A stretch of 64,000 bases of DNA. Source: Acidobacteriota bacterium. GTDB taxonomy: Bacteria; Acidobacteriota; UBA890; WLXD01. Where the stretch lies: assembly GCA_965205505.1 (NCBI GenBank), contig CBDBHB010000009.1, positions 2,784,001 through 2,848,000 on the forward strand. Direction: 5' to 3'. Shown here piece by piece: positions 14,094 to 64,000 of the stretch; the first letter of the stretch is position 1, and every line of letters begins with the position of its first letter. The position numbers were made by a program, and so were the translations under genes. The notes below the pieces were generated by a model. The model was not told the origin of the DNA and made no database searches. It saw nothing but the letters and a program-made list of their open reading frames with translations.

Positions 14094-14176
14094 GCCGGGG
14101 TGGCGGAATTGGCAGACGCGGCGGACTTAAAATCCGCTGGCCTTAGGTCATCTGGGTTCGAGTCCCAGCCCCGGCA
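14094..14176 (+). tRNA. tRNA-Leu(TAA), no encoded CCA
   Basis: GCCGGGG/CCCCGGC acceptor stem, GCGGA-CTTAAAA-TCCGC anticodon arm, long variable arm, GGTTCGAGTCC T-loop. Confidence 0.96.
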
Positions 14177-14194
14177 CTTGTTTAGAATCAGGTA

Positions 14195-14293: not shown

Positions 14294-16968
14294 CTATGAA
14301 GGCGTACCACCGCGTAACGACAATGCCGGGTCATGACGGGTGGCGCGCCTCGCCGGCAGCGCTGCTGCTGCCGTTCCCATCACGACCACCACGATCGCCG
14401 CCGGCACGTACATCCGCAGGTCGAGTCGCTCGACGCCGAAGAGGCCGGCGTTGACGAGCGTGGCGAATCCGAGGGCCAGCGGCACGCCGAGACCGATACC
14501 GAGCGCGGCGAGGCGGAGTCCGGAGCCGAGGATCATGCGGTTGACCTGCTCGGCGCGGGCGCCGACGGCCATACGGATGCTTATCTCGCGGTAGCGGCTG
14601 TGGGTCTCGAGCATCAGGACGCCGTAAATGCCGATGGCTGAGAGCAGCACCGCGGCGCCGGCGATCACGCCGGCGAGCAGTAGAGCGAACCGTTGCGGGC
14701 CCACGGCGCGGTCGTAGTCGTCGCTGAAGGAGTGCAGTCCGGCGACCGCCAGATCTGCATTGACGCCGGCGACAGCATCGCGGATCGAATCGGTCAAGCT
14801 TGCCACCTGCCGGCCGCGCACCATGTAGCCGATTTCCCATCGCGGTGCCTGGGCCCAGGGCAAGTAGACCTGGCCGGTGGACGGCTCATCGATCGATCGA
14901 TCTCGCAGCGGCTCGGTGACCCCGACGATGCGTGCCGGGACGTTCTCGAAGTGATCGTCGCGCCAATGACTGACGATCACCCGACGTCCGAGGGCCTCGT
15001 CGTGGCCGAACAGGCGCTCGGCGAGCACGGTGTCGAGCACCGCGCGACCCGCTCACCTTCGGCGTCGGCGGCTGCGTCGAACTCGCGTCCCGAGATCAGC
15101 CGGGTGCCGAGCGTGTTGAAGTAGCCGGGCGTCACCATACGATGATCGACGATGCCCTGCTGGCTCGGATCGTCGGGACTTTCGACCAGCACCACACGGT
15201 TGGCCCAGTTGACCCAGCTGCCGAGCGGCATGTGTGATCCGGCGCCCACCGACTCCACGCCGGGAAGATCGAGAATCTCCTGCCGCACCTCGCGGACCAC
15301 GCGATCGCGCGTGGCTCCCTCGGCGAAGCCCTCCGATGACAGGCTGATCTTGAACGTCAGACGTTCCGGTACCTGGAAGCCGGGCTCCACCTGTTGCAGG
15401 TTGGCCACGGTGGCCGCCATTAGCGAGGTCCCTACCAGCAGAGCGAAGGTGGCGGCGATCTGTGCCACGCTTGCCACCCTCCGCATGCGGATGCCGAGCC
15501 TACCGGAACCCTCGCCGGGGCGGCCGAGCAGGAACCGCGACAGGTCCGAGCGCGACAGCAGCAGCACCGGCCCGACCGACAGGAACAGCACCGAGACGAT
15601 CGCGGCGCCGATGGCGAACAGCGCCACGCGGCCATCGGCGCTGACGTCGGCAAGGTGCTCGAGCGACGCCGGCCGTACCGTCCAAAGCAGCGATAGGCCG
15701 GCGGCGCCGAGTGCCATGCCTAGGGCGGAAGCGGCGGCTGCCAATAGCATTCCTTCGCCGATCAGCTGGCGGGCCAGCTGGCGTCGCTCGGCACCGAGGC
15801 ACGAGCGCACGGCGAACGCCGGTAGTCGGGCCACTGCATTGGTCACCATCAGGCTCGTGACGTTCGTCAACGTGAGGAACAGCAACAGCAGGGCTCCCGC
15901 CTGCACGCCGATGAGCGCCACGCGCAGGTGGCTCGTCCACTCGGTGTTCAGTTGGCGAACGTCGAACCAGACATCGGAGTCGGCCAGGTCGGGGCGCAGC
16001 TCGCGAAGATCACGGGCCGGCTTCTCAAGCGCAGCTTGCGCCGCGGCCGTGCTCAGCCCCGGCCTCAAGCGACCGACGACACGGAGGTAGTACTGGTCGG
16101 GATTGAGGTATTGCAAGGGAGGGTAGGGGACGAACGCGTCGAGATGCGTGGGGACGCCGTTGCCCGGCGGAAAGCGGAATTGGAATCGTTCTGGCATCAC
16201 CCCGACGATCTGGTGCGGCGTCCCGTTCATCCGCAGCGTCATGCCGAGCACGTTCGGATCGCCGCCGAAGTAGCGCTGCCAGAACGCGTGGCTCAGGAGT
16301 ACGGAGCCTTGCGCATCGGGGGCGGTCGGGTCGGCGGCGTCGTCGTCACGCAGCAGGCGGCCCATCGCCGGTGGCACCCCGAGGGTCGAAAAAAGCGATG
16401 CGGTCGATTGGCCGACCGATACCTGCTCGGGATACTCCCCCCCGGTGATTGTCGAGCTGCTCGCCCATAGTCCGCCGATGCTCTCGAACACGTCGCCGGC
16501 CTCGCCCAGCTTGTCGAGCTGGGCCGGTGACAGTGGAGCCTGTGAAAAGCCGGCGGCGCGCCAGTCGCCCCATACCACCACCAGGCGCTCTGGCTCGGCG
16601 TACTGGAGCGGTCGTAGCAGGACGGCGTTGGCGACGCTGAAGACGGCTGTGTTGACGCCCAGGCCGATCGCCAACACGAGCCCGCACATCGCGGTGAATC
16701 GTGGTTGCCGCACGAGCCCCTGCAGGGCCTGGGCTAGCTCCCAGGCCAGCCGCGCCCGCAAGGCTACTCTGTCTCGCTGCCGCGCCCGGTACGCCTCGGG
16801 GAGCGCCAGGAGGCTGTCGATTACCAGACGTGACGCTACGCGCAGCCGCGCCAGGCCCTGCTCCCGGCCGACCATTTCCGTCGCGGTGTGGAGCCACGGC
16901 TCCCCCAGCTCCTGGCGAAATCTACGGGGGTGAAGCCGCAGCAGACCGAGCAGGATCCATCGCATCAC
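14294..16968 (-). CDS. ADOP-type duplicated ABC permease (MacB/FtsX), frameshift near 15041
   Basis: LAIGLGVNTAVFSV..VLLRPL, IVGVMP, AIGIYGVL..R.REISIRMAVGA, PARRATRHDP. Split into two ORFs. Confidence 0.88.
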
Positions 16969-29933: not shown

Positions 29934-31453
29934 GTGGGACATTCGGTAGTTGCCGGGAGCCGGAACGTGAGTGTAGGCGAGCTGCAAGATCTGCTTCGCG
30001 GCAGCGGCAGCGTGTTGGCTGCCGCGGCGGGCGTCGTTGCCGCGGCGAGCGCCGCGTTGCATGCGTTGCTTTTCAAACGCGACTCGCGTTCGGCACTCGG
30101 GTGGATCGCGGTCTCTGTGGCCTTCCCGCTGGTCGGGCCGGCGCTGTACTACGTGCTGGGCATCAACAGGATCCGCACGCGGGCCAAGCGCCTGCACGCC
30201 GATGCACCGGAGGAGGTCAAGCACCGGCCCGGGGTCGGGGCGCCGCCGGGCATGACTGGGAGCCGGTCAGCGGCCGTTGCCTACAAGGGCACCACAACAC
30301 CGGAGCCCCAGCTCGGCGACCTAGTTCGCCTCGGCCGGGTCGTCACTCGACGTTGCCTCACCGTTGGTAACACGGTAACGGTGTTGCACAACGGCGAGGG
30401 GGCCTACCCGCCGATGATCGACGCCATCCGTGGCGCGGAGCGGAGCGTTTACCTGGCGACCTATATCTTCGAGACCAACGCCACCGGCCTGGCGTTCGTG
30501 GAGGCCTTGTCGGCGGCAGTCTCGCGGGGCGTTAGCGTACGGGTGCTGGTGGACGGTGTGGGCGAGCTCTATGGCGGGCCACGGGCTTCCAAGGTATTGA
30601 TTCGAGCTGGCGTTCCGAGTGCGCGGTTTCTACCGCCTCGTTTGCTACCGCCGCAACTCGCAATCAACCTGCGTAACCACCGGAAGATCCTCGTAGCCGA
30701 CGGGTATGTGGCGTTCACGGGTGGCATGAACATTGGCGATCGGCATCTCGCTGATGACGATGATCCGCATCGGGTTACCGACATTCACTTTCTTCTCCGT
30801 GGGCCGGTCGTACGGCAAATAGAGGACGTCTTTCTGGAAGACTGGGAGTTCACTACAGGCGAAGCGCTAGAGCCGTCTCCGGTGCGCGAGGAAGTTGCCA
30901 ACGGCTCAACCTCGGCGCGCCTGGTAGTGGATGGCCCAGACGAGGATCTAGATCGCCTGGCGGCGATCCTCATCGGTGCGATTGGTGCCGCGCGCTGGCG
31001 AGTCTGGATCATGCGCCCTATTTCCTTCCACCACGCGAGCTCATAGCGGCACTAAAGGCGGCGGCGCTGCGCGGCACCGATGTCAGGGTGATCCTGCCAG
31101 CGAAAATCAACCTTCCCTACGTTCACTGGGCATCACGGAACATCCTCTGGGAACTGCTGCACTGGGGCGTGCGTGTGTTCTATCAGCCGGCCCCGTTCGC
31201 GCATTCGAAGTTGCTGCTGGTCGACGAGGAGTACGTCCAGATCGGCTCGGCGAACATCGATCCGCGCTCTTTGCGGCTCAACTTCGAGCTTTCGGTGGAA
31301 CTCTACGATCCTAGCCTGGCCGCCACGCTGGAAGCCTATGCCGAGGCGCTCATGGAGAAGTCGCGCGAGGTGAGCTTCGGCGAGTTAGACCAGCGGCACC
31401 TGGGCATCCGTATCCGCGATGCTCTCGCTGGCCTTTTTACTCCGTATCTATAG
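29934..31453 (+). CDS. cls: cardiolipin synthase, -1 frameshift at about 31013
   Basis: Two HKD motifs (NHRKILVAD; HSKLLLVD) in different frames. ATG-CG-CCC-TAT-TTC needs one base to read MTPYF. Confidence 0.9.
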
Positions 31454-57309: not shown

Positions 57310-58221
57310 TTGTCGCGCGTGCGGCGAAGCGCCGCGTATCAGGAGCCTCAACCCTTGGGTGACACGATCCGTCCGGGCGATCAGGTGCTCGCTGCTCTCG
57401 AGGACGGCAAGACGTTCCTGATCCGTCTGCGGGCGGGCCAGAGGCACTCGACCCACAAGGGTGTGATGGACCACGACGACGTCATCGGACGGTTCTGGGG
57501 GGACGTGCTCATCACGAATACCGGGGCGCGCATCTTCCTGCTGCGACCCCGATGGATCGATCGTATGATGAAGGTGCACCGCCGCACGAACATCATGTAC
57601 CCGAAGGACGCAAGCTTCCTGATCGCGGCGCTCGGTCTGCGAGCCGGGGCGAAGGTCGTCGAGATCGGCTCCGGGTCGGGTGCTATGACGATTGCTCTGA
57701 GTTGCGCGGTGTTGCCGGGCGGAACGGTCTACTCGTATGACCGGCGCCCGGAGTTCCTCGAGCTGGCGCGCCACAACACGGCGGCGGCCGGAATCGAGGA
57801 AGGCTTGGAGTTTCGCTTGCGCGAAGTCGGCGACCCGCTCGAACCTGGAGTCGACGCCGTATTCACCGACGTCCCTGAGCCCTGGGCTGAGCTCGATCCC
57901 ATCGCCGAGGCGTTGCGCGGCAGCGGCAGATTCGCCGCCGGTACACCGACGTTCAACCAAGCGGAGCGGTTGGCAGGCGCTTTGCCCGGCTTCGGGTTCG
58001 CCGTGGTCGAGACGGTCGAGATCCTGGTGCGCGAGATCCTCGCCCGTCCCGGCAAGACACGACCGGGCCATCGGATGGTGGGCCACACGCAACTGCTGAC
58101 CACCGCCGTGAAGGTTACGGCGCCCAGCGAGGGTGAATCGGTGTCGTCGGTCGAGGACGTCGACGGCCCGGTGGCAGATCGGAACCCGCCAGAGGACGGG
58201 CCCGGGAGATCGGCCGAGTGA
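57310..58221 (+). CDS. trmI: tRNA (adenine-58-N1)-methyltransferase
   Basis: IMYPKD, EIGSGSG, DVPEPW, RPGHRMVGHT. Confidence 0.9.
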   Translation: MSRVRRSAAYQEPQPLGDTIRPGDQVLAALEDGKTFLIRLRAGQRHSTHKGVMDHDDVIGRFWGDVLITNTGARIFLLRPRWIDRMMKVHRRTNIMYPKDASFLIAALGLRAGAKVVEIGSGSGAMTIALSCAVLPGGTVYSYDRRPEFLELARHNTAAAGIEEGLEFRLREVGDPLEPGVDAVFTDVPEPWAELDPIAEALRGSGRFAAGTPTFNQAERLAGALPGFGFAVVETVEILVREILARPGKTRPGHRMVGHTQLLTTAVKVTAPSEGESVSSVEDVDGPVADRNPPEDGPGRSAE

Positions 58222-58874
58222 CGGGGCAGCGAGAAACTGAAGTGCGGGCTGCGGAGATCCTCGATCGACTCGAGCATTGTTATCCAGAGGCGCGGGTCGA
58301 GCTTGATTTCGACGGGCCGCTGCAACTGCTCATCGCCACGATCCTGTCGGCACAGTCGACTGACAAGCGGATCAATCAGGTAACGCCGGAGCTGTTCCGC
58401 AAGTACCCCGACGCCACGGCGTTCGCCGAAGCGGCCCGTGACGAGCTCGAGGAGGAGCTGCGTAGCACGGGCTTCTTCCGCCAGAAAGCCAAGAGCGTGC
58501 AAGGCTGCTGCGCCATGCTGGTTGAGCTCCACGGCGGCGAGGTCCCGCGCGAGATGAACGAGTTGACCGCGTTGCCTGGGGTAGGGCGCAAGACTGCAAA
58601 CGTTGTCCGCGCCGGAGCCTTCGGGCTGCCGGGCATAGCGGTCGACACCCACTGTCGGCGCGTCAGCCAGCGCCTCGGACTAACCGCCGACACGGATCCG
58701 GTGAAGATTGAGCGCCGCCTCGGCGACCTGTATCCGGAGGGCCGCTGGGCGGACATCTCGCGTCTCTATATCTGGCATGGCCGCTACACGTGTAGGGCGC
58801 GCACGCCGGCGTGCGAGGACTGTGCACTGGCAGACCTGTGTCCTTGGCTGCGGGATCAGGCCGACTCCGCATAG
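58218..58874 (+). CDS. nth: endonuclease III
   Basis: LSAQSTD, LPGVGRKTA, VDTH, C-x6-C-x2-C-x5-C. Confidence 0.96.
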   Translation: MTGQRETEVRAAEILDRLEHCYPEARVELDFDGPLQLLIATILSAQSTDKRINQVTPELFRKYPDATAFAEAARDELEEELRSTGFFRQKAKSVQGCCAMLVELHGGEVPREMNELTALPGVGRKTANVVRAGAFGLPGIAVDTHCRRVSQRLGLTADTDPVKIERRLGDLYPEGRWADISRLYIWHGRYTCRARTPACEDCALADLCPWLRDQADSA

Positions 58875-58900: not shown

Positions 58901-58944
58901 TACCAGAAGTATTTCTTGTATACCAAAAATATATTTGGTATACT
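58901..58944 (+). promoter_or_regulatory. sigma70 promoter overlapped by two tandem 20-bp palindromic boxes
   Basis: TTGTAT(58916)-N17-TATACT(58939). Boxes TACCAGAAGTATTTCTTGTA (58901-58920) and TACCAAAAATATATTTGGTA (58921-58940). Confidence 0.8.
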
Positions 58945-59013
58945 TCGACCTCGATTTCCAGTCACGAAGAAACGCCAGCCGGCAGTCCGGTGCGCATCAC
59001 GAGGCCTGATCAG

Positions 59014-59667
59014 ATGACCACCCTGACCCGACGCCAGAGAGCGATCTACGACTTTATTGTCGGACAGGTCAGTCTCAACGGCATCCCGCCAACCCTCATG
59101 GAGATCGCCGCCGCCTTCGGTCTCAGCTCTGCCGCGGGGGTCTCGGATCACCTCAAGGCAATCGAGCGCAAGGGCTTCATTCGCCGCCGTCCCGGCGCCT
59201 CACGTGGTATCGAGTTGGCGCGTATGGCACGCCCGAGGGCTGGACGCCGCTCGATTGGTGTGCCGGTGGTCGCCGCAGTGCCCTCGGCGCGCGGCCTATC
59301 GAAGGCGCGAGCGCGTGAGGTGTATGTCGATGGCAGGCTGGTAGGGCCTAACGTGATCGCTGTGCAGGTGAGCTCAGCCTCGCTGGGCGCCCGCGGGATC
59401 CTGCAGGGTGACCTCCTGGTAGTCGATTGCGATGCCGAGGCGCGCCGCGGAGATCTGTTGCTCGGACTGCAGTCACGCAGAGTTCTGTTGATGGAGATGG
59501 CAGGGGGCGACCGTACGGCGGTGCCGTTGGCGGGGCGATTCGACGCCAACGCCGAAGTAGAGGTGGTGGGGCGCGTGGCATCGGTGATTCGTGATCTGAA
59601 CCAGCACCCATTCTCATTGACACTCGAAGGACGACATACGCCCGGATGGGGAGGGATAGCAAGATGA
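59014..59667 (+). CDS. LexA-like repressor with degenerate S24 peptidase domain
   Basis: [25 protein letters not shown] winged helix. C-domain [18 protein letters not shown] lacks the AG site and catalytic Lys. Confidence 0.88.
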
Positions 59668-62276
59668 TCCGCTTCGACAGATTCACCGTGAAGGCGCAGG
59701 AGGCGGTCCAACGCGCCCAGGCGTTGGCGCTGTCACTCAAACACCAAGGCGTCGCTGGCGTGCACTTGTTGATGGCGCTGCTCGAGCCGGCCGACGGCGT
59801 CGTGCGCACCGTCCTCCAGCGGCTCGGAAGCGATCCGGATGCCCTGCTCCTGGCCGTCCGTGCGGAGGCCGAGGAACGTCCGCAGGTGAGCGGTGGAAAC
59901 CTCGAGCCCTATCTCCAGGCAAGCACCAAGTCGGTTTTCGAGGCCGCGCATGCCGAGGCCGATCAGCTGGAGGATCGATTCGTTTCCACCGAGCACTTGC
60001 TGCTAGGCCTGCTGGGCTCGGGCGCCAAAGCAGCCGAGCTGCTCGCCAGCCATGGCGTAGGCCGCGACGATCTCTTCGCGGCGCTGCAGAAAGTGCGTGG
60101 CAGCATGCGGGTCACCGATCCCAACCCGGAGGACAAGTACAACGCCATCGACCAGTACGGGATCGACCTTACCGAGCGTGCCCGCCGCGGCAAGCTGGAC
60201 CCGGTGATCGGCCGGGACGAAGAGATCCGCCGGGTCGTGCAGGTCCTGTCGCGGCGGACCAAGAACAACCCGGTGCTGATCGGTGAGCCGGGCGTGGGCA
60301 AGACGGCCATCGTCGAGGGGCTGGCGCAGCGCATCGTCAACGGTGACGTGCCGGAGACGCTGAAGAACCGCCGTGCGATCAGCCTGGACCTCGGCGCCAT
60401 GCTGGCCGGGGCCAAGTATCGGGGCGAGTTCGAGGATCGGCTCAAGGCATTTTTACGCGAAGTTACCGAGGCAGGCGACGTGATCCTGTTCATCGACGAG
60501 CTCCATACTGTTGTCGGCGCGGGCGCCGCCGAGGGCGCCGTCGATGCGTCCAACATGCTCAAGCCGGCGCTGGCGCGCGGTGAGCTGCACGCCATCGGTG
60601 CCACTACCTTGAGCGAGTTTCGCAAGTACGTCGAGAAAGACCCGGCGCTCGAGCGCCGCTTCCAGCCGGTGCGGGTCCAAGAGCCGGGGGTAGAGGAGAC
60701 CATCTCGATCCTGCGCGGCCTCAAGGAACGCTACGAGGTACACCACGGGGTGCGCATCCGTGACGCTGCGCTGATCGCAGCAGCGACACTCTCTCATCGC
60801 TATATCACCGACCGGTTCTTACCTGACAAGGCGATCGATCTGATGGATGAGGCCGGGGCGCGGTTGCGCGTCGAGATCGACAGCAAGCCGGCACCTCTTG
60901 ACGAGATTGAACGCCGCCGCCGCCAGATGGAGATCGAGCGCGAGGCGCTACGCAAGGAAGACGACAGCGGCTCACGGGATCGACTGGAGGCGCTCGAGGA
61001 GGAGCTGAGCGCGCTGGTCGCAGAGCATGAGCGCCTCAAGGCGCGGTGGGACGAGGAAGTTCGGCACGTGCGTGGCATTCAGGAGCTCAAGCGCCAAATC
61101 GAGGAGGCGCGCACCGATGCCGAGCGCGCCGAGCGCGACGGCGAGCTGGCGCGTGCCGCGGAGCTGCGGTACGGCGTCGTACCTGAGCGCGAGGCAGAGC
61201 TCGAAACCTCACGCCAGCGGCTGGAGGAGCTCAACGGCGACGGCAACGCGATGCTCAAAGAGGAGGTTGACGCCGAGGACGTGGCCGCCGTGGTCTCGCG
61301 GTGGACAGGCATTCCGGTCAGCAAGCTCATCGAAGGGGAGATCGACAAGCTGCTGGAAATGGAGTCCCGGCTGCACCAGCGCGTCGTCGGGCAGGAGCCA
61401 GCGGTGCGCGCCGTCTCAGACTCCATTCGCAGGGCCCGCGCCGGACTACAAGAGCGCGGGCGTCCGTACGGCTCGTTCATGTTCCTTGGTCCGACCGGCG
61501 TCGGGAAGACCGAGCTGGCGAAGGCCCTGGCAGAGTTCATGTTCGACAGCGAAGAGGCGATGATTCGTCTCGACATGACGGAGTACATGGAACGCCATGC
61601 TGTGGCGCGCATAATCGGCGCGCCGCCGGGCTACGTCGGCCACGAAGAGGGAGGTTTCCTTACCGAGGCGGTGCGCCGGCGCCCTTACTCGGTCATCCTC
61701 CTCGACGAGATCGAAAAGGCGCATGCCGACGTCTTCAACATCCTGCTCCAAATCCTCGACGATGGCCGCCTTACTGACGGCAAGGGACGCACCGTCGACT
61801 TCTCCAACAGCGTCGTAATCATGACCTCCAACCTCGGCAGCGAGCATATGCAGCGGCTGGACGAGATCGGGCCAGAGGGCATCGAAGCGGCGGTGATGGA
61901 CGCTGTGCGCCGCACCTTCCGGCCAGAGTTCGTGAACCGCATCGACGAGACGATTGTCTTCTCGCCCTTGTCGGTGGCCCAACTGCAGGAGATCGTGCGG
62001 ATCCAGCTACGCCAACTGCGAGAACGTGTCGCCGACCGTAACCTGGAGATAGAGTTCAGCGAGGCTGCCGAGCAGCTATTGGCCGAGCAGGGCTACGATC
62101 CGGTGTATGGCGCCCGCCCGCTGAAGCGCCTCATCCGCCAGCTGGTCGAAAATCCCCTGGCGCGGGCGATCCTGGCAGGCGAGTTCGTCGACGGGGACCA
62201 CATCCGCGTGGATACCGATCCCACTACCTCCGTGCTGGCGTTCCGTCGTACTCGGGCGACTGCTGCGGCGGGGTGA
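59664..62276 (+). CDS. clpB: ClpB disaggregase
   Basis: Two AAA+ modules ([16 protein letters not shown]), long coiled-coil M-domain with AAELRYG, GARPLKR. Confidence 0.97.
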
Positions 62277-62307
62277 CATGAAGAGCCCTAGAATGGCCAC
62301 TCTGACG

Positions 62308-62480
62308 ACCCACACTTCCACCACGGCCTGCCAGCCCTCCGGGTGGCCGCGGCGGCTGGCCACCTCCGGCGTCGGCTCTCCTCTGCGATACGCACAGCAT
62401 CGCCGTCGTCGAGCCTCCTTGGATTCGACTCAGTCGTGCGCGCCACAATATGCAACGAACCTCTGTTAACAGGACACTAG
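62308..62480. mobile_element. composite MITE remnant (type A arm + type B half)
   Basis: CACACTTCCACCACGGCCTGCCAG, then hairpin core and CTCTGTTAACAGGACACTAG. Confidence 0.85.
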
Positions 62481-63416
62481 ATGCCGCGTAAGGACTATTA
62501 CGCTGTTCTTGGCGTCGCGAAGACAGCCGCGGCGGACGAGATCAAGCGCGCCTACCGCAAGCTCGCCCGAAAATGGCACCCGGATGTCAATTCAGGCGAT
62601 GCCAAGGCGGAGGAAAGGTTCAAGGAGATCTCCGAGGCCTACCACGTGCTCGGGGATCCCAAGCGGCGCAAGAAATACGATCACGTGGGCCCCGAGGCGT
62701 TCGCCCGCGACTTCGACGGGTCGGCCTTTTCCGAGCAGTTCGGCAACTTGTTTGGCGGCGGCGGCGGCGGTGGCTTCTCGGTCGGCGGGTTCAGCATCGA
62801 GGATCTACTCGGCGGGTTTGGCGTTGGCAGCCCGTCCGGTGGTGGCCCGCATGTTCGTCGGCCGCCACCGTCGCGCGGGCGCGACATACGAATTCGTGTC
62901 GAGCTCGGGCTCGAGGATGCGGTAAACGGAGCCGAGCGCCTGATCAGCTACCGCGGCGAGAGCGGCGACGTGCAGCGTACCCGCGTGCGAATTCCCGCCG
63001 GGGTGCGGCAGGGCAGCAAGGTTCGGGTTCGAGGGAAGGGTTCCGACGGGCTCAATGGCGGCGGACGCGGCGACCTGTATGTCGTGGTCGATATTGCGGC
63101 GCATCCGCGGTTCCGGCTCGTCGGCGACGATCTGCACACCAACGTGCCGATCACTATCTATGAGGCGGCGCTCGGTGGTCGTGTGGAGGTGCCGACGCTG
63201 TCAGGGACGACGACGATCAGCTTGCCAGCGGGCACGTCGAACGGACAGGTGTTCCGCCTGCGCGGCAAGGGCGCCGCACGTAAGGCGGGCGGCGCAGGAG
63301 ACTTGATGGCAAAGGTGGCAATCGAGTTGCCGAAACAGCTCGACGATCCGATGGTGGAGATCATGCAACAGGTACGCGATCAGCATCCCTATGATCCGCG
63401 CCACAATAACGAGTGA
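62481..63416 (+). CDS. class B J-domain protein (CbpA/DnaJ-like, no zinc finger)
   Basis: DYY..LGV, HPD, G/F region, GDLYV, ALGG..VPTL; no CxxCxGxG. Confidence 0.93.
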   Translation: MPRKDYYAVLGVAKTAAADEIKRAYRKLARKWHPDVNSGDAKAEERFKEISEAYHVLGDPKRRKKYDHVGPEAFARDFDGSAFSEQFGNLFGGGGGGGFSVGGFSIEDLLGGFGVGSPSGGGPHVRRPPPSRGRDIRIRVELGLEDAVNGAERLISYRGESGDVQRTRVRIPAGVRQGSKVRVRGKGSDGLNGGGRGDLYVVVDIAAHPRFRLVGDDLHTNVPITIYEAALGGRVEVPTLSGTTTISLPAGTSNGQVFRLRGKGAARKAGGAGDLMAKVAIELPKQLDDPMVEIMQQVRDQHPYDPRHNNE

Positions 63417-63430
63417 GCCGCGAAGCGTGG

Positions 63431-63491
63431 CGCCTACTGACCCCAACTCGTCGTAGCCGAGCTCGCCCCGCTTCCACTACGAACCGGCCAG
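63431..63491. mobile_element. degenerate MITE type A arm
   Basis: CTGACCCCAACTCGTCGTAGCC..CTTCCACTACG..GCCAG aligns with the reverse complement of 45397-45451. Confidence 0.65.
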
Positions 63492-63575
63492 GCTGCGCTA
63501 TGCGGTCGATGGGGGCGCGGTACCATACGCGAAGCCGAATGCGTTGCAACCTACTCAGAGAGCGACCGACTACAT

Positions 63576-64000
63576 ATGCCTGAATCCGAGCCCTTCGACA
63601 CTCACCTGGACGCCGAGATTCAGCAGGAGCTCGGCCGCGCACGGGAAGCGGAGATCGAGTTCCCGGCGACATTACCGGTTTTGCCGCTGCGCGGGTCGGT
63701 GCTGTTTCCCGGCGTGGTCATGCCGGTGCTGGTCGGGCGCAAGGCCTCCCAGCAGCTGGTGGTCGAGACGATGGATGCCGATCGGCTGGTGGCTGTCGTA
63801 GCCTTGCGTGACGCCGAGATCGAAGAGCCTAACGCCGACGATCTGCATGAGATCGCCACGCTGGCGCGACTGGTGAAGGTTCTGCGTCTGCCCAACGGCA
63901 ACCTCAACGTGATCGTCCAAGGTATTCAAAGGCTGCGTCTCGACGCCGTCACGTCCACTGATCCCTACATTCACGCTACCTGGAACGACATCCCCGAGCC
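63576..64000 (+). CDS. lon: Lon protease N-terminal domain (runs off the window)
   Basis: LPVLPLRGSVLFPGVVMPVLVGR..LRLPNGNLNVIVQG. Absent from the ORF track because it is open-ended. Confidence 0.85.
   Translation, partial: MPESEPFDTHLDAEIQQELGRAREAEIEFPATLPVLPLRGSVLFPGVVMPVLVGRKASQQLVVETMDADRLVAVVALRDAEIEEPNADDLHEIATLARLVKVLRLPNGNLNVIVQGIQRLRLDAVTSTDPYIHATWNDIPE

Follow-up and report, generated by a model that had tools for sequence, protein, structure and literature searches.

The gene cluster

The 64,000-nt stretch of genome analysed here (hereafter the window, numbered from its first base) comes from an Acidobacteriota bacterium (assembly GCA_965205505.1, contig CBDBHB010000009.1, positions 2,784,001 to 2,848,000 of the forward strand) and carries four co-oriented genes in its final 5 kb: a lexA-like gene, clpB, the gene for a J-protein (hereafter dnaJ) and lon. 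As argued below, the product of the first gene, a LexA-type protein which has lost the residues needed for self-cleavage, is probably the repressor of the cluster that it heads. The lexA-like gene (59014..59667, + strand) encodes 217 amino acids (aa); an in-frame GTG at 58990 could also serve as the start, but the N-terminus common to all relatives and to E. coli LexA is obtained from the ATG at 59014. Its stop codon overlaps the start of clpB (59664..62276, + strand) in the sequence ATGA at 59664-59667, and the disaggregase encoded by clpB scores 1313.3 bits against TIGR03346, above the cut-off of 1232.1. The product of dnaJ (62481..63416, + strand) has DnaJ (96.1 bits) and DnaJ_C (146.9 bits) domains; as no zinc-finger domain was found by Pfam, it is assigned to the class B, CbpA-like J-proteins (DnaJ/CbpA-like), and it falls below both the DnaJ and the CbpA equivalog cut-offs of NCBIfam. 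The lon open reading frame (ORF; 63576..64000, + strand) runs past the end of the window and shows the N-domain of LonA (LON_substr_bdg, 104.9 bits), whilst the orthologue in relative L001 has the N-domain, AAA, lid and Lon_C regions.

An earlier reading of this DNA, made from the letters and ORFs alone (the sequence-only reading), had described the stop/start overlap with clpB, the dnaJ-class and lon genes following on the same strand and the lack of an hspR, hrcA or ctsR gene in the cluster, all of which is borne out: no HrcA, CtsR or MerR/HspR domain was found among the 43 larger window ORFs scanned (those of roughly 100 aa and above). The CIRCE and HAIR operators, with consensus sequences as generally known, gave 0 matches each in the window at up to three mismatches. 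Between 58700 and 64000 there were 0 matches to RNA thermometers or other Rfam RNAs at E values up to 1, and no terminator was detected between the genes of the cluster, the four matches of the scan all being intragenic and not exceeding the expectation from shuffled sequence (mean 2.4).

Domains, catalytic residues and predicted fold

The lexA-like protein is composed of a winged helix (residues 1-68), a variable linker (69-79), a catalytically dead S24-fold domain (80-195) and a disordered tail (196-217). In Pfam the LexA_DNA_bind domain (PF01726) is recognised over residues 1-65 with 78.8 bits (cut-off 23.7), and Peptidase_S24 (PF00717) as a partial match over residues 104-149 with 17.3 bits, below its cut-off of 23.3; the only other Pfam signal is a weak MarR/ArsR-type helix-turn-helix, with no homology to HrcA, CtsR or MerR-type HspR. 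The protein scores 96.7 bits against the NCBIfam lexA equivalog TIGR00498, under the cut-off of 110.95.

In E. coli LexA the cleaved bond is Ala84-Gly85 and the catalytic residues are Ser119 and Lys156 (PMC4759255). A HMMER search against solved structures aligned residues 1-153 to E. coli LexA (3jso_A, E 1.5e-17), pairing the cleavage stretch with AAVPSARG, the Ala-Gly bond with Ser91-Ala92 and the active-site Ser with Ser123; in an L-INS-i alignment of 81 LexA-type proteins, the column of the catalytic Lys is occupied by Met160. The sequence-only reading had mapped the cleavage site and the Lys by eye and called the winged helix intact, and was right on each count. Its further statement that only the Ser was kept holds for the window copy and not for the family, in which the catalytic Ser is retained in just 4/16 loci and 9/25 proteins.

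Modelled with AlphaFold2 from 50 family sequences, the protein has a mean predicted local distance difference test (pLDDT) score of 84.6 and a predicted template modelling score of 0.57, with low values only in the linker (71-77) and tail (203-214). When the model was compared with solved structures using Foldseek, LexA structures ranked first (3jso E 2.1e-13; whole chains E about 1e-13); chains comprising the LexA C-domain only gave template modelling (TM) scores of 0.64-0.67 at 21-24% identity, and the nuclear magnetic resonance structure of the DNA-binding domain, 1lea, gave a TM score of 0.90 with a root-mean-square deviation of 1.2. By the model the lexA-like protein keeps the LexA fold, and by the alignments its catalytic chemistry is lost. 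The sequence predicts no RecA- or alkaline-stimulated self-cleavage and, because there is neither an Ala-Gly bond nor a Lys, release from DNA would not be expected to proceed by RecA-stimulated self-cleavage.

A predicted C-domain dimer and selection

A homodimer model of the C-domain (residues 78-198) scored 0.81, against 0.01 for the best control, and three runs shared at least 97% of contacts with a partner pLDDT of at least 87. Among proteins of solved structure, 20 of 30 that were solved as pairs of one chain reach this mark, as does 1 of 23 that were solved as single chains; these counts apply only roughly here as the model used an alignment built by ourselves. Since LexA dimers are among the solved structures, the pass is a likeness to those dimers and not a demonstration of dimerisation. 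The modelled interface (103-107, 128-130 and 187-196) includes the invariant D106 and R193 and the near-invariant G128, I129, L130 and V188, and is abutted by the family-invariant G186, a pattern of conservation which fits selection for dimerisation if the model is correct.

The loss of catalytic residues and the sub-threshold S24 and TIGR00498 scores might also be expected of a decaying, functionless lexA duplicate, the case in which the sequence-only reading would have failed. However, the ratio of non-synonymous to synonymous substitution rates (dN/dS) in five pairs was 0.13-0.26 for the C-domain and 0.06-0.08 for the N-domain, well below 1 in both, and mean pairwise identity was 0.75 in the N-domain, 0.18 in the linker and 0.39 in the C-domain. 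The C-domain is under purifying selection and the gene is therefore not a decaying copy; the homologues share the residue loss, the ORFs are intact in 16/16 loci (the window included) across 43-94% identity, the predicted fold is confident, and both the operator and the gene order described below are conserved. Decay is thus an explanation to which we attach almost no credence.

A distinct family in the Acidobacteriota

A word-indexed protein search returned 75 matches, of which the first 53 (E 1.7e-130 to 5.4e-31) have PF01726 and lack PF00717; the next match is 15 orders of magnitude weaker in E and opens a further set of 22, 19 of them with PF00717. When 1.84 billion representatives (clusters at 50% identity) were searched with a profile, eight clear family clusters were found at 196-274 bits, and a further protein at 176.5 bits (P0080) is also a member by alignment. 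Against the same profile, proteins with a double LexA DNA-binding domain scored 150-165 bits and canonical LexA at most 152 bits. Amongst species-representative genomes, where the best 80 of 445 matches were kept, 15 loci encode relatives at 43-94% identity and 65 are other LexA loci; the record titles of the relatives name Acidobacteriota or Acidobacteria in 13 cases and an "uncultured bacterium" in two.

In a tree of these 80 sequences with the window protein (81 rows; quick search, unrooted), the 16 family rows are set apart from all others by a branch with a Shimodaira-Hasegawa-like approximate likelihood ratio (SH-aLRT) support of 99 and a stem of 1.13 changes per column. The same division is seen in the residues: a cleavage site (Ala/Cys-Gly), the Ser and the Lys are all present in 64/65 other LexA loci and in 0/16 family rows. 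Taken separately, the Ala-Gly site is lacking from all 16 family loci and present in 64/65 others, and the Lys column holds M, L, V or I in 16/16 family rows and K in 64/65 non-family rows; a separate protein alignment likewise showed no Lys in this column in 25 family proteins. The lexA-like genes are thus a small, distinct and conserved family. It descends from LexA, but it fails the testable defining features of LexA (S24 signature, equivalog score, cleavage site and catalytic dyad) and should not be filed under that name, as has occurred for 5/53 family proteins which carry the source label "repressor LexA".

Several other unusual LexA-type proteins were observed in these searches. The sole one of the 65 non-family loci without intact catalytic residues, L077 (6001-6615, from a Bryobacterales metagenome-assembled genome), encodes a second, unrelated degenerate LexA-type protein in the Acidobacteriota. 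Its cleavage site reads Leu-Gly, Ala and Arg stand in the columns of the catalytic Ser and Lys respectively, its branch is very long (2.99), and there is no clpB in the vicinity. Three proteins (P0057, P0061 and P0075) are tagged as S24 by Pfam, yet their cleavage site reads LLDGR or VTGKK and Ala stands in the Lys column, so that they are possibly another non-cleaving LexA lineage; the named matches in this series are Thermoguttaceae and Planctomycetia. Four others (P0081, P0082, P0084 and P0085) have two tandem LexA-type winged helices and no S24 domain, reaching their 150-165 bits through the N-domain alone.

Conserved gene order

In all 15 related loci clpB lies directly 3' of the lexA-like gene, and the two are in close contact: the genes overlap at stop and start, or are separated by no more than 3 nt, in 14/16 loci, the others being L007 and L015 with gaps of 58-59 nt. 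A J-protein gene follows clpB in 14/14 loci with DNA extending that far, and lon follows dnaJ in 12/13 loci with DNA beyond dnaJ. No clpB was found near the 65 canonical-LexA loci. The window has the longest gaps: that between clpB and dnaJ is 204 nt, compared with 3-53 nt in the nine loci measured (53 in L001 and 3-16 in more distant relatives), and that between dnaJ and lon is 159 nt, compared with 10 nt in L010. Within the former gap (62277-62480) the window has an extra GC-rich segment of about 150 nt with short inverted repeats, possibly an insertion or a promoter region private to this copy.

Upstream of the cluster lies nth, encoding endonuclease III (58218..58874, + strand; HhH-GPD 81.9 bits, EndIII_4Fe-2S sub-threshold), which occupies the same position in 14/15 related loci and is placed outside the proposed operon. 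The exception is L009, in which both flanks differ, with aconitase X upstream and a GAF-SpoIIE phosphatase gene in the place of lon; in spite of these changed flanks the operator, lexA-like gene, clpB and dnaJ remain together. Since L009 keeps these genes without nth and lon, the core module is taken to be lexA-like-clpB-dnaJ, whilst lon often joins it as fourth gene and nth is commonly adjacent but can be parted from it.

A predicted promoter and operator

The AT-rich stretch before the lexA-like gene contains a perfect 26-bp palindrome, GTATAC-N14-GTATAC, at 58918-58943. Within this lies the main predicted operator, the 20-bp palindrome TACCAAAAATATATTTGGTA (58921..58940), which scores 30.1 bits against a position weight matrix (PWM) of the family motif. 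The motif stands before the gene in all 15 relatives, with the consensus TACCGTAAATATTTACGGTA, i.e., CCGT-N8-ACGG, of which the window has the version CCAA-N8-TTGG. Using a PWM built without the window, the main operator is the best match of the entire 64 kb at 27.9 bits, followed by a non-adjacent match at 9.3 bits; shuffled windows yielded a mean of 0.2 matches at 10 bits or more. In leave-one-out scoring the promoter palindrome tops its own sequence in 16/16 cases, with 20-37 bits, and non-adjacent matches reach at most 9.3 bits.

A second, weaker operator-like site, TACCAGAAGTATTTCTTGTA (58901..58920; 11.4 bits, or 10.7 in leave-one-out), adjoins the main operator on its upstream side, at an offset of 20 bp, and extends over the -35 element, and a site of at least 10 bits occurs at this 20-bp offset in 6/16 loci (the window, L002, L003, L004, L008 and L015). 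Besides this abutting site, the window and the 15 loci yielded no other operator scoring at least 10 bits, and no copy at that threshold precedes dnaJ or lon.

The palindrome appears to be set inside a promoter of sigma-70 type, as would suit a repressor heading the cluster. The predicted -35 element is TTGTAT (58916..58921, + strand) and the predicted -10 element TATACT (58939..58944, + strand), and in 16/16 loci a TTG and a TAnnnT stand at fixed positions from the palindrome, such that its first base ends TTGnnn, its last two bases open TAnnnT and the 17-bp spacer is composed entirely of operator. A scan for consensus promoters missed TTGTAT, which matches TTGACA at 3/6 bases; the promoter is read from the conserved TTG and TAnnnT elements rather than from transcript mapping. 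This palindrome in the promoter spacer is new with respect to the sequence-only reading and, as far as sequence can indicate, would turn its "repressor heading an operon" into a concrete model.

A site in the -35/-10 spacer is also where MerR-type activators bind, and the protein could in principle activate the promoter from this position in the manner of MerR without any repression. Such activation is very improbable here: MerR-type promoters have over-long spacers of 19-20 bp, in contrast to the optimal 17 bp in 16/16 loci, the fold is that of LexA, a repressor family, and the second site covers the -35 element.

The palindrome recalls the E. coli LexA box, CTGT-N8-ACAG (PMC8565304), to which its dyad spacing (4-N8-4) is equal, and CTGT half-sites occur in L006, L007 and L011. 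A CCGT-N8-ACGG dyad would be expected as the target of a LexA-type dimer with an altered recognition helix. Given the co-occurrence of gene and palindrome in 16/16 loci, the LexA-like geometry and the habit of self-regulation in the LexA family, we infer that the lexA-like protein is the binder of the palindrome.

The same likeness raises the question as to whether the protein might instead be the general SOS or stress LexA of its clade, with a broad regulon including DNA repair and a non-canonical means of inactivation (a partner protease or an anti-repressor), clpB being but one adjacent target. The SOS-box dyad spacing, the CTGT half-sites in some loci and the repair gene nth upstream in 14/15 loci would accord with this, as would the lack of any canonical LexA from the same assemblies among the best 80 of 445 matches; moreover, the LexA of Synechocystis lacks the Ala-Gly site and Ser, yet is described as a global regulator (PMC4759255). 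However, within the window and the 15 loci, DNA that does not include recA, uvrA or dinB-type genes, the abutting site is the only further match of at least 10 bits; the overlap or near-contact with clpB is kept in 14/16 loci; in L009 the module has moved with clpB-dnaJ and without nth; and nth lies upstream of the operator, so that the promoter does not drive it. On this evidence a general SOS role is considered unlikely.

The sequence-only reading had also pointed to a TTGACA in the tail of the lexA-like gene as a possible separate promoter of clpB. The hexamer exists (59617-59622, + strand), but it has no -10 partner in the scan for consensus promoters; the tail which holds it is found only in the closest relatives, and the hexamer is kept in L001 and absent from L002. 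It was rejected as a separate clpB promoter and may at most be a weak private one. The dnaJ-lon spacers of the four closest loci (the window, L001, L002 and L015) share a short conserved stretch with TACCAT (window about 63500-63530), which resembles one operator half-site or a -10 element, there being no full site in that position. Lastly, a perfect 9-nt inverted repeat has its arms 140 nt apart (58854-58862 and 59003-59011), one in the end of nth and the other over the likely ribosome-binding site of the lexA-like gene; this may be chance.

Remainder of the window

Upstream of nth is trmI (57310-58221). The remaining window comprises ordinary metabolic and housekeeping genes, and no other chaperone gene, canonical lexA or recA was found among the 43 larger ORFs. 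At 29934-31046 and 31088-31453, neighbouring ORFs on one strand both match PLD-like domains and are possibly one gene of phospholipase D/cardiolipin synthase type split by a stop or frameshift. Two overlapping ORFs on the - strand with FtsX-type permease domains (14294-15040 and 14977-16968; MacB_PCD + FtsX, and FtsX) could represent a single MacB-like permease gene in which the frame changes, or could stem from the ORF calling itself; a tRNA-Leu (taa) lies at 14094-14177, just upstream of this pair.

Discussion

The reading which we favour, at a probability of about 0.7, is that the lexA-like protein acts as a dimer, independently of RecA, to repress its own operon, lexA-like-clpB-dnaJ(-lon). 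In this model the winged helix has been kept for DNA binding and the S24 beta-fold as a dimerisation module. The dimer would bind the 20-bp palindrome which fills the -35/-10 spacer of its own sigma-70-type promoter, joined in some lineages, that of the window included, by a second dimer on the abutting site over the -35 element. Bound in this manner it would exclude RNA polymerase and repress one transcript running through lexA-like, clpB and dnaJ and probably into lon, the repressor being the first gene and thus under negative autoregulation. Release would be RecA-independent, the active dimer most likely being lost under heat or other proteotoxic stress, with unfolding or heat lability, titration of chaperones, and degradation by Lon or Clp as candidate routes. 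Each of these routes has a counterpart: RheA and CtsR are intrinsically heat-labile, the activity of HrcA and of HspR depends on free GroEL and DnaK respectively, and UmuD, a protein of S24 fold, is a substrate of Lon in E. coli. That proteotoxic stress is the inducing signal is speculative, and we rate it as only a little better than an even bet.

The proposal of the sequence-only reading, that an SOS-independent LexA derivative acts as a heat or protein-damage repressor, has therefore fared differently in its parts. The repressor half has gained from the loss of the full catalytic set in all 16 family loci, from the synteny with clpB in 15/15 genome loci and from the candidate operator, whereas the heat signal and the route of release are as speculative as before.

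Several points weigh against the favoured model. The candidate operator is seen at one promoter alone across 64 kb and 15 loci of 5-12.6 kb and, because none precedes dnaJ or lon, control of lon depends on read-through; the clpB-dnaJ and dnaJ-lon gaps of the window (204 and 159 nt) could house promoters of their own, and lon is not universal, being lacking from L009. The SOS-box-like dyad and the nth neighbour may leave room for a role in DNA damage, whilst the lack of a canonical lexA from family assemblies among the best 80 of 445 matches carries little weight in either direction. The PWM derives from the sites that it scores, and the leave-one-out values are partly circular in that the close relatives L001 and L002 stay in the training set. 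Finally, binding, repression, co-transcription and heat induction are all inferred from the anatomy of the locus.

That anatomy would also suit a signal-blind homeostatic autorepressor which merely buffers the dosage of ClpB, DnaJ and Lon, stress induction arising from an alternative sigma factor or from internal promoters. The anatomy goes no further than autoregulation through an operator in the promoter of the gene itself, neither a motif for sensing nor a feature for ligand binding was identified in the protein, and the intergenic gaps of the window could contain other promoters. However, the known first-gene repressors of chaperone operons, HrcA and CtsR, are stress-responsive, and a large C-domain under selection (dN/dS 0.13-0.26) exceeds what a minimal dimeriser would require, although the latter argument is weak. 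A purely homeostatic role is regarded as quite improbable.

Compared with E. coli-type LexA, the protein shares the winged helix (TM 0.90 to 1lea), the C-domain fold (TM 0.64-0.67), a predicted C-domain dimer and a 20-bp palindrome with a 4-N8-4 dyad in its own promoter. It differs in having no Ala-Gly bond, no catalytic Lys and an unconserved Ser, in falling below the S24 and TIGR00498 cut-offs, and in its half-site, which is CCGT in the family and CTGT in E. coli; furthermore, the family gene is translationally coupled to clpB, whereas canonical LexA controls DNA-repair genes.

The arrangement bears much similarity to the HrcA/CIRCE, CtsR and HspR/HAIR systems. In these the gene for the repressor belongs to the chaperone or protease operon under its control (hrcA and ctsR come first in theirs), an inverted-repeat operator overlaps a promoter of the housekeeping sigma factor, as is predicted here, and the cargo comprises genes of ClpB, J-protein and Lon type. 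However, the lexA-like protein has no sequence relation to HrcA, CtsR or HspR, and the window contains neither CIRCE nor HAIR.

Likened by features and not by phylogeny, the nearest precedent for the lost cleavage features is LexA of Synechocystis sp. PCC 6803, which is without the Ala-Gly site and the dyad Ser, and for which no autocleavage is reported; in its RNA-seq table, htpG, dnaJ and hspA appear under "chaperones" with several-fold differences between two strains (PMC4759255). As described there, it differs in that it regulates many processes globally and that its gene lies outside any chaperone operon. Parallels of input are provided by two LexA-like regulators of the S24 family with non-SOS signals. 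HdiR of Lactococcus/Streptococcus is responsive to heat shock and requires Clp proteolysis for full derepression (PMC8565304); since it clusters with phage CI-type repressors in that source, it appears to be without the LexA winged helix. IrvR of S. mutans is a reported exception to RecA dependence (PMC7101444). Both differ from the lexA-like family in that they keep autocleavage, and neither is known to be linked to clpB. A literature search, limited to one library of papers, returned none linking a LexA-type protein to clpB or to heat-shock control in the Acidobacteriota.

A bolder extension, possible but on balance doubtful, is that this dead LexA-fold protein represents an independent class of negative heat-shock regulator beside HrcA, CtsR, HspR and RheA. 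Its pseudo-peptidase domain would then be a client of the products of its own operon, with free ClpB and J-protein keeping the dimer active and Lon removing the unfolded dimer, and the SOS scaffold would have been rewired from RecA and DNA damage to protein damage.

For annotation, the family carries a warning, as SOS regulons inferred from "repressor LexA" labels in these genomes would be wrong. For the organisms, it offers a candidate for the control of clpB, dnaJ and lon in some Acidobacteriota, an abundant but little-studied soil phylum. If the model is true, the sensor-repressor scaffold of LexA would have lost its signal-receiving chemistry, kept its DNA-binding geometry and been re-used for a proteostasis circuit.

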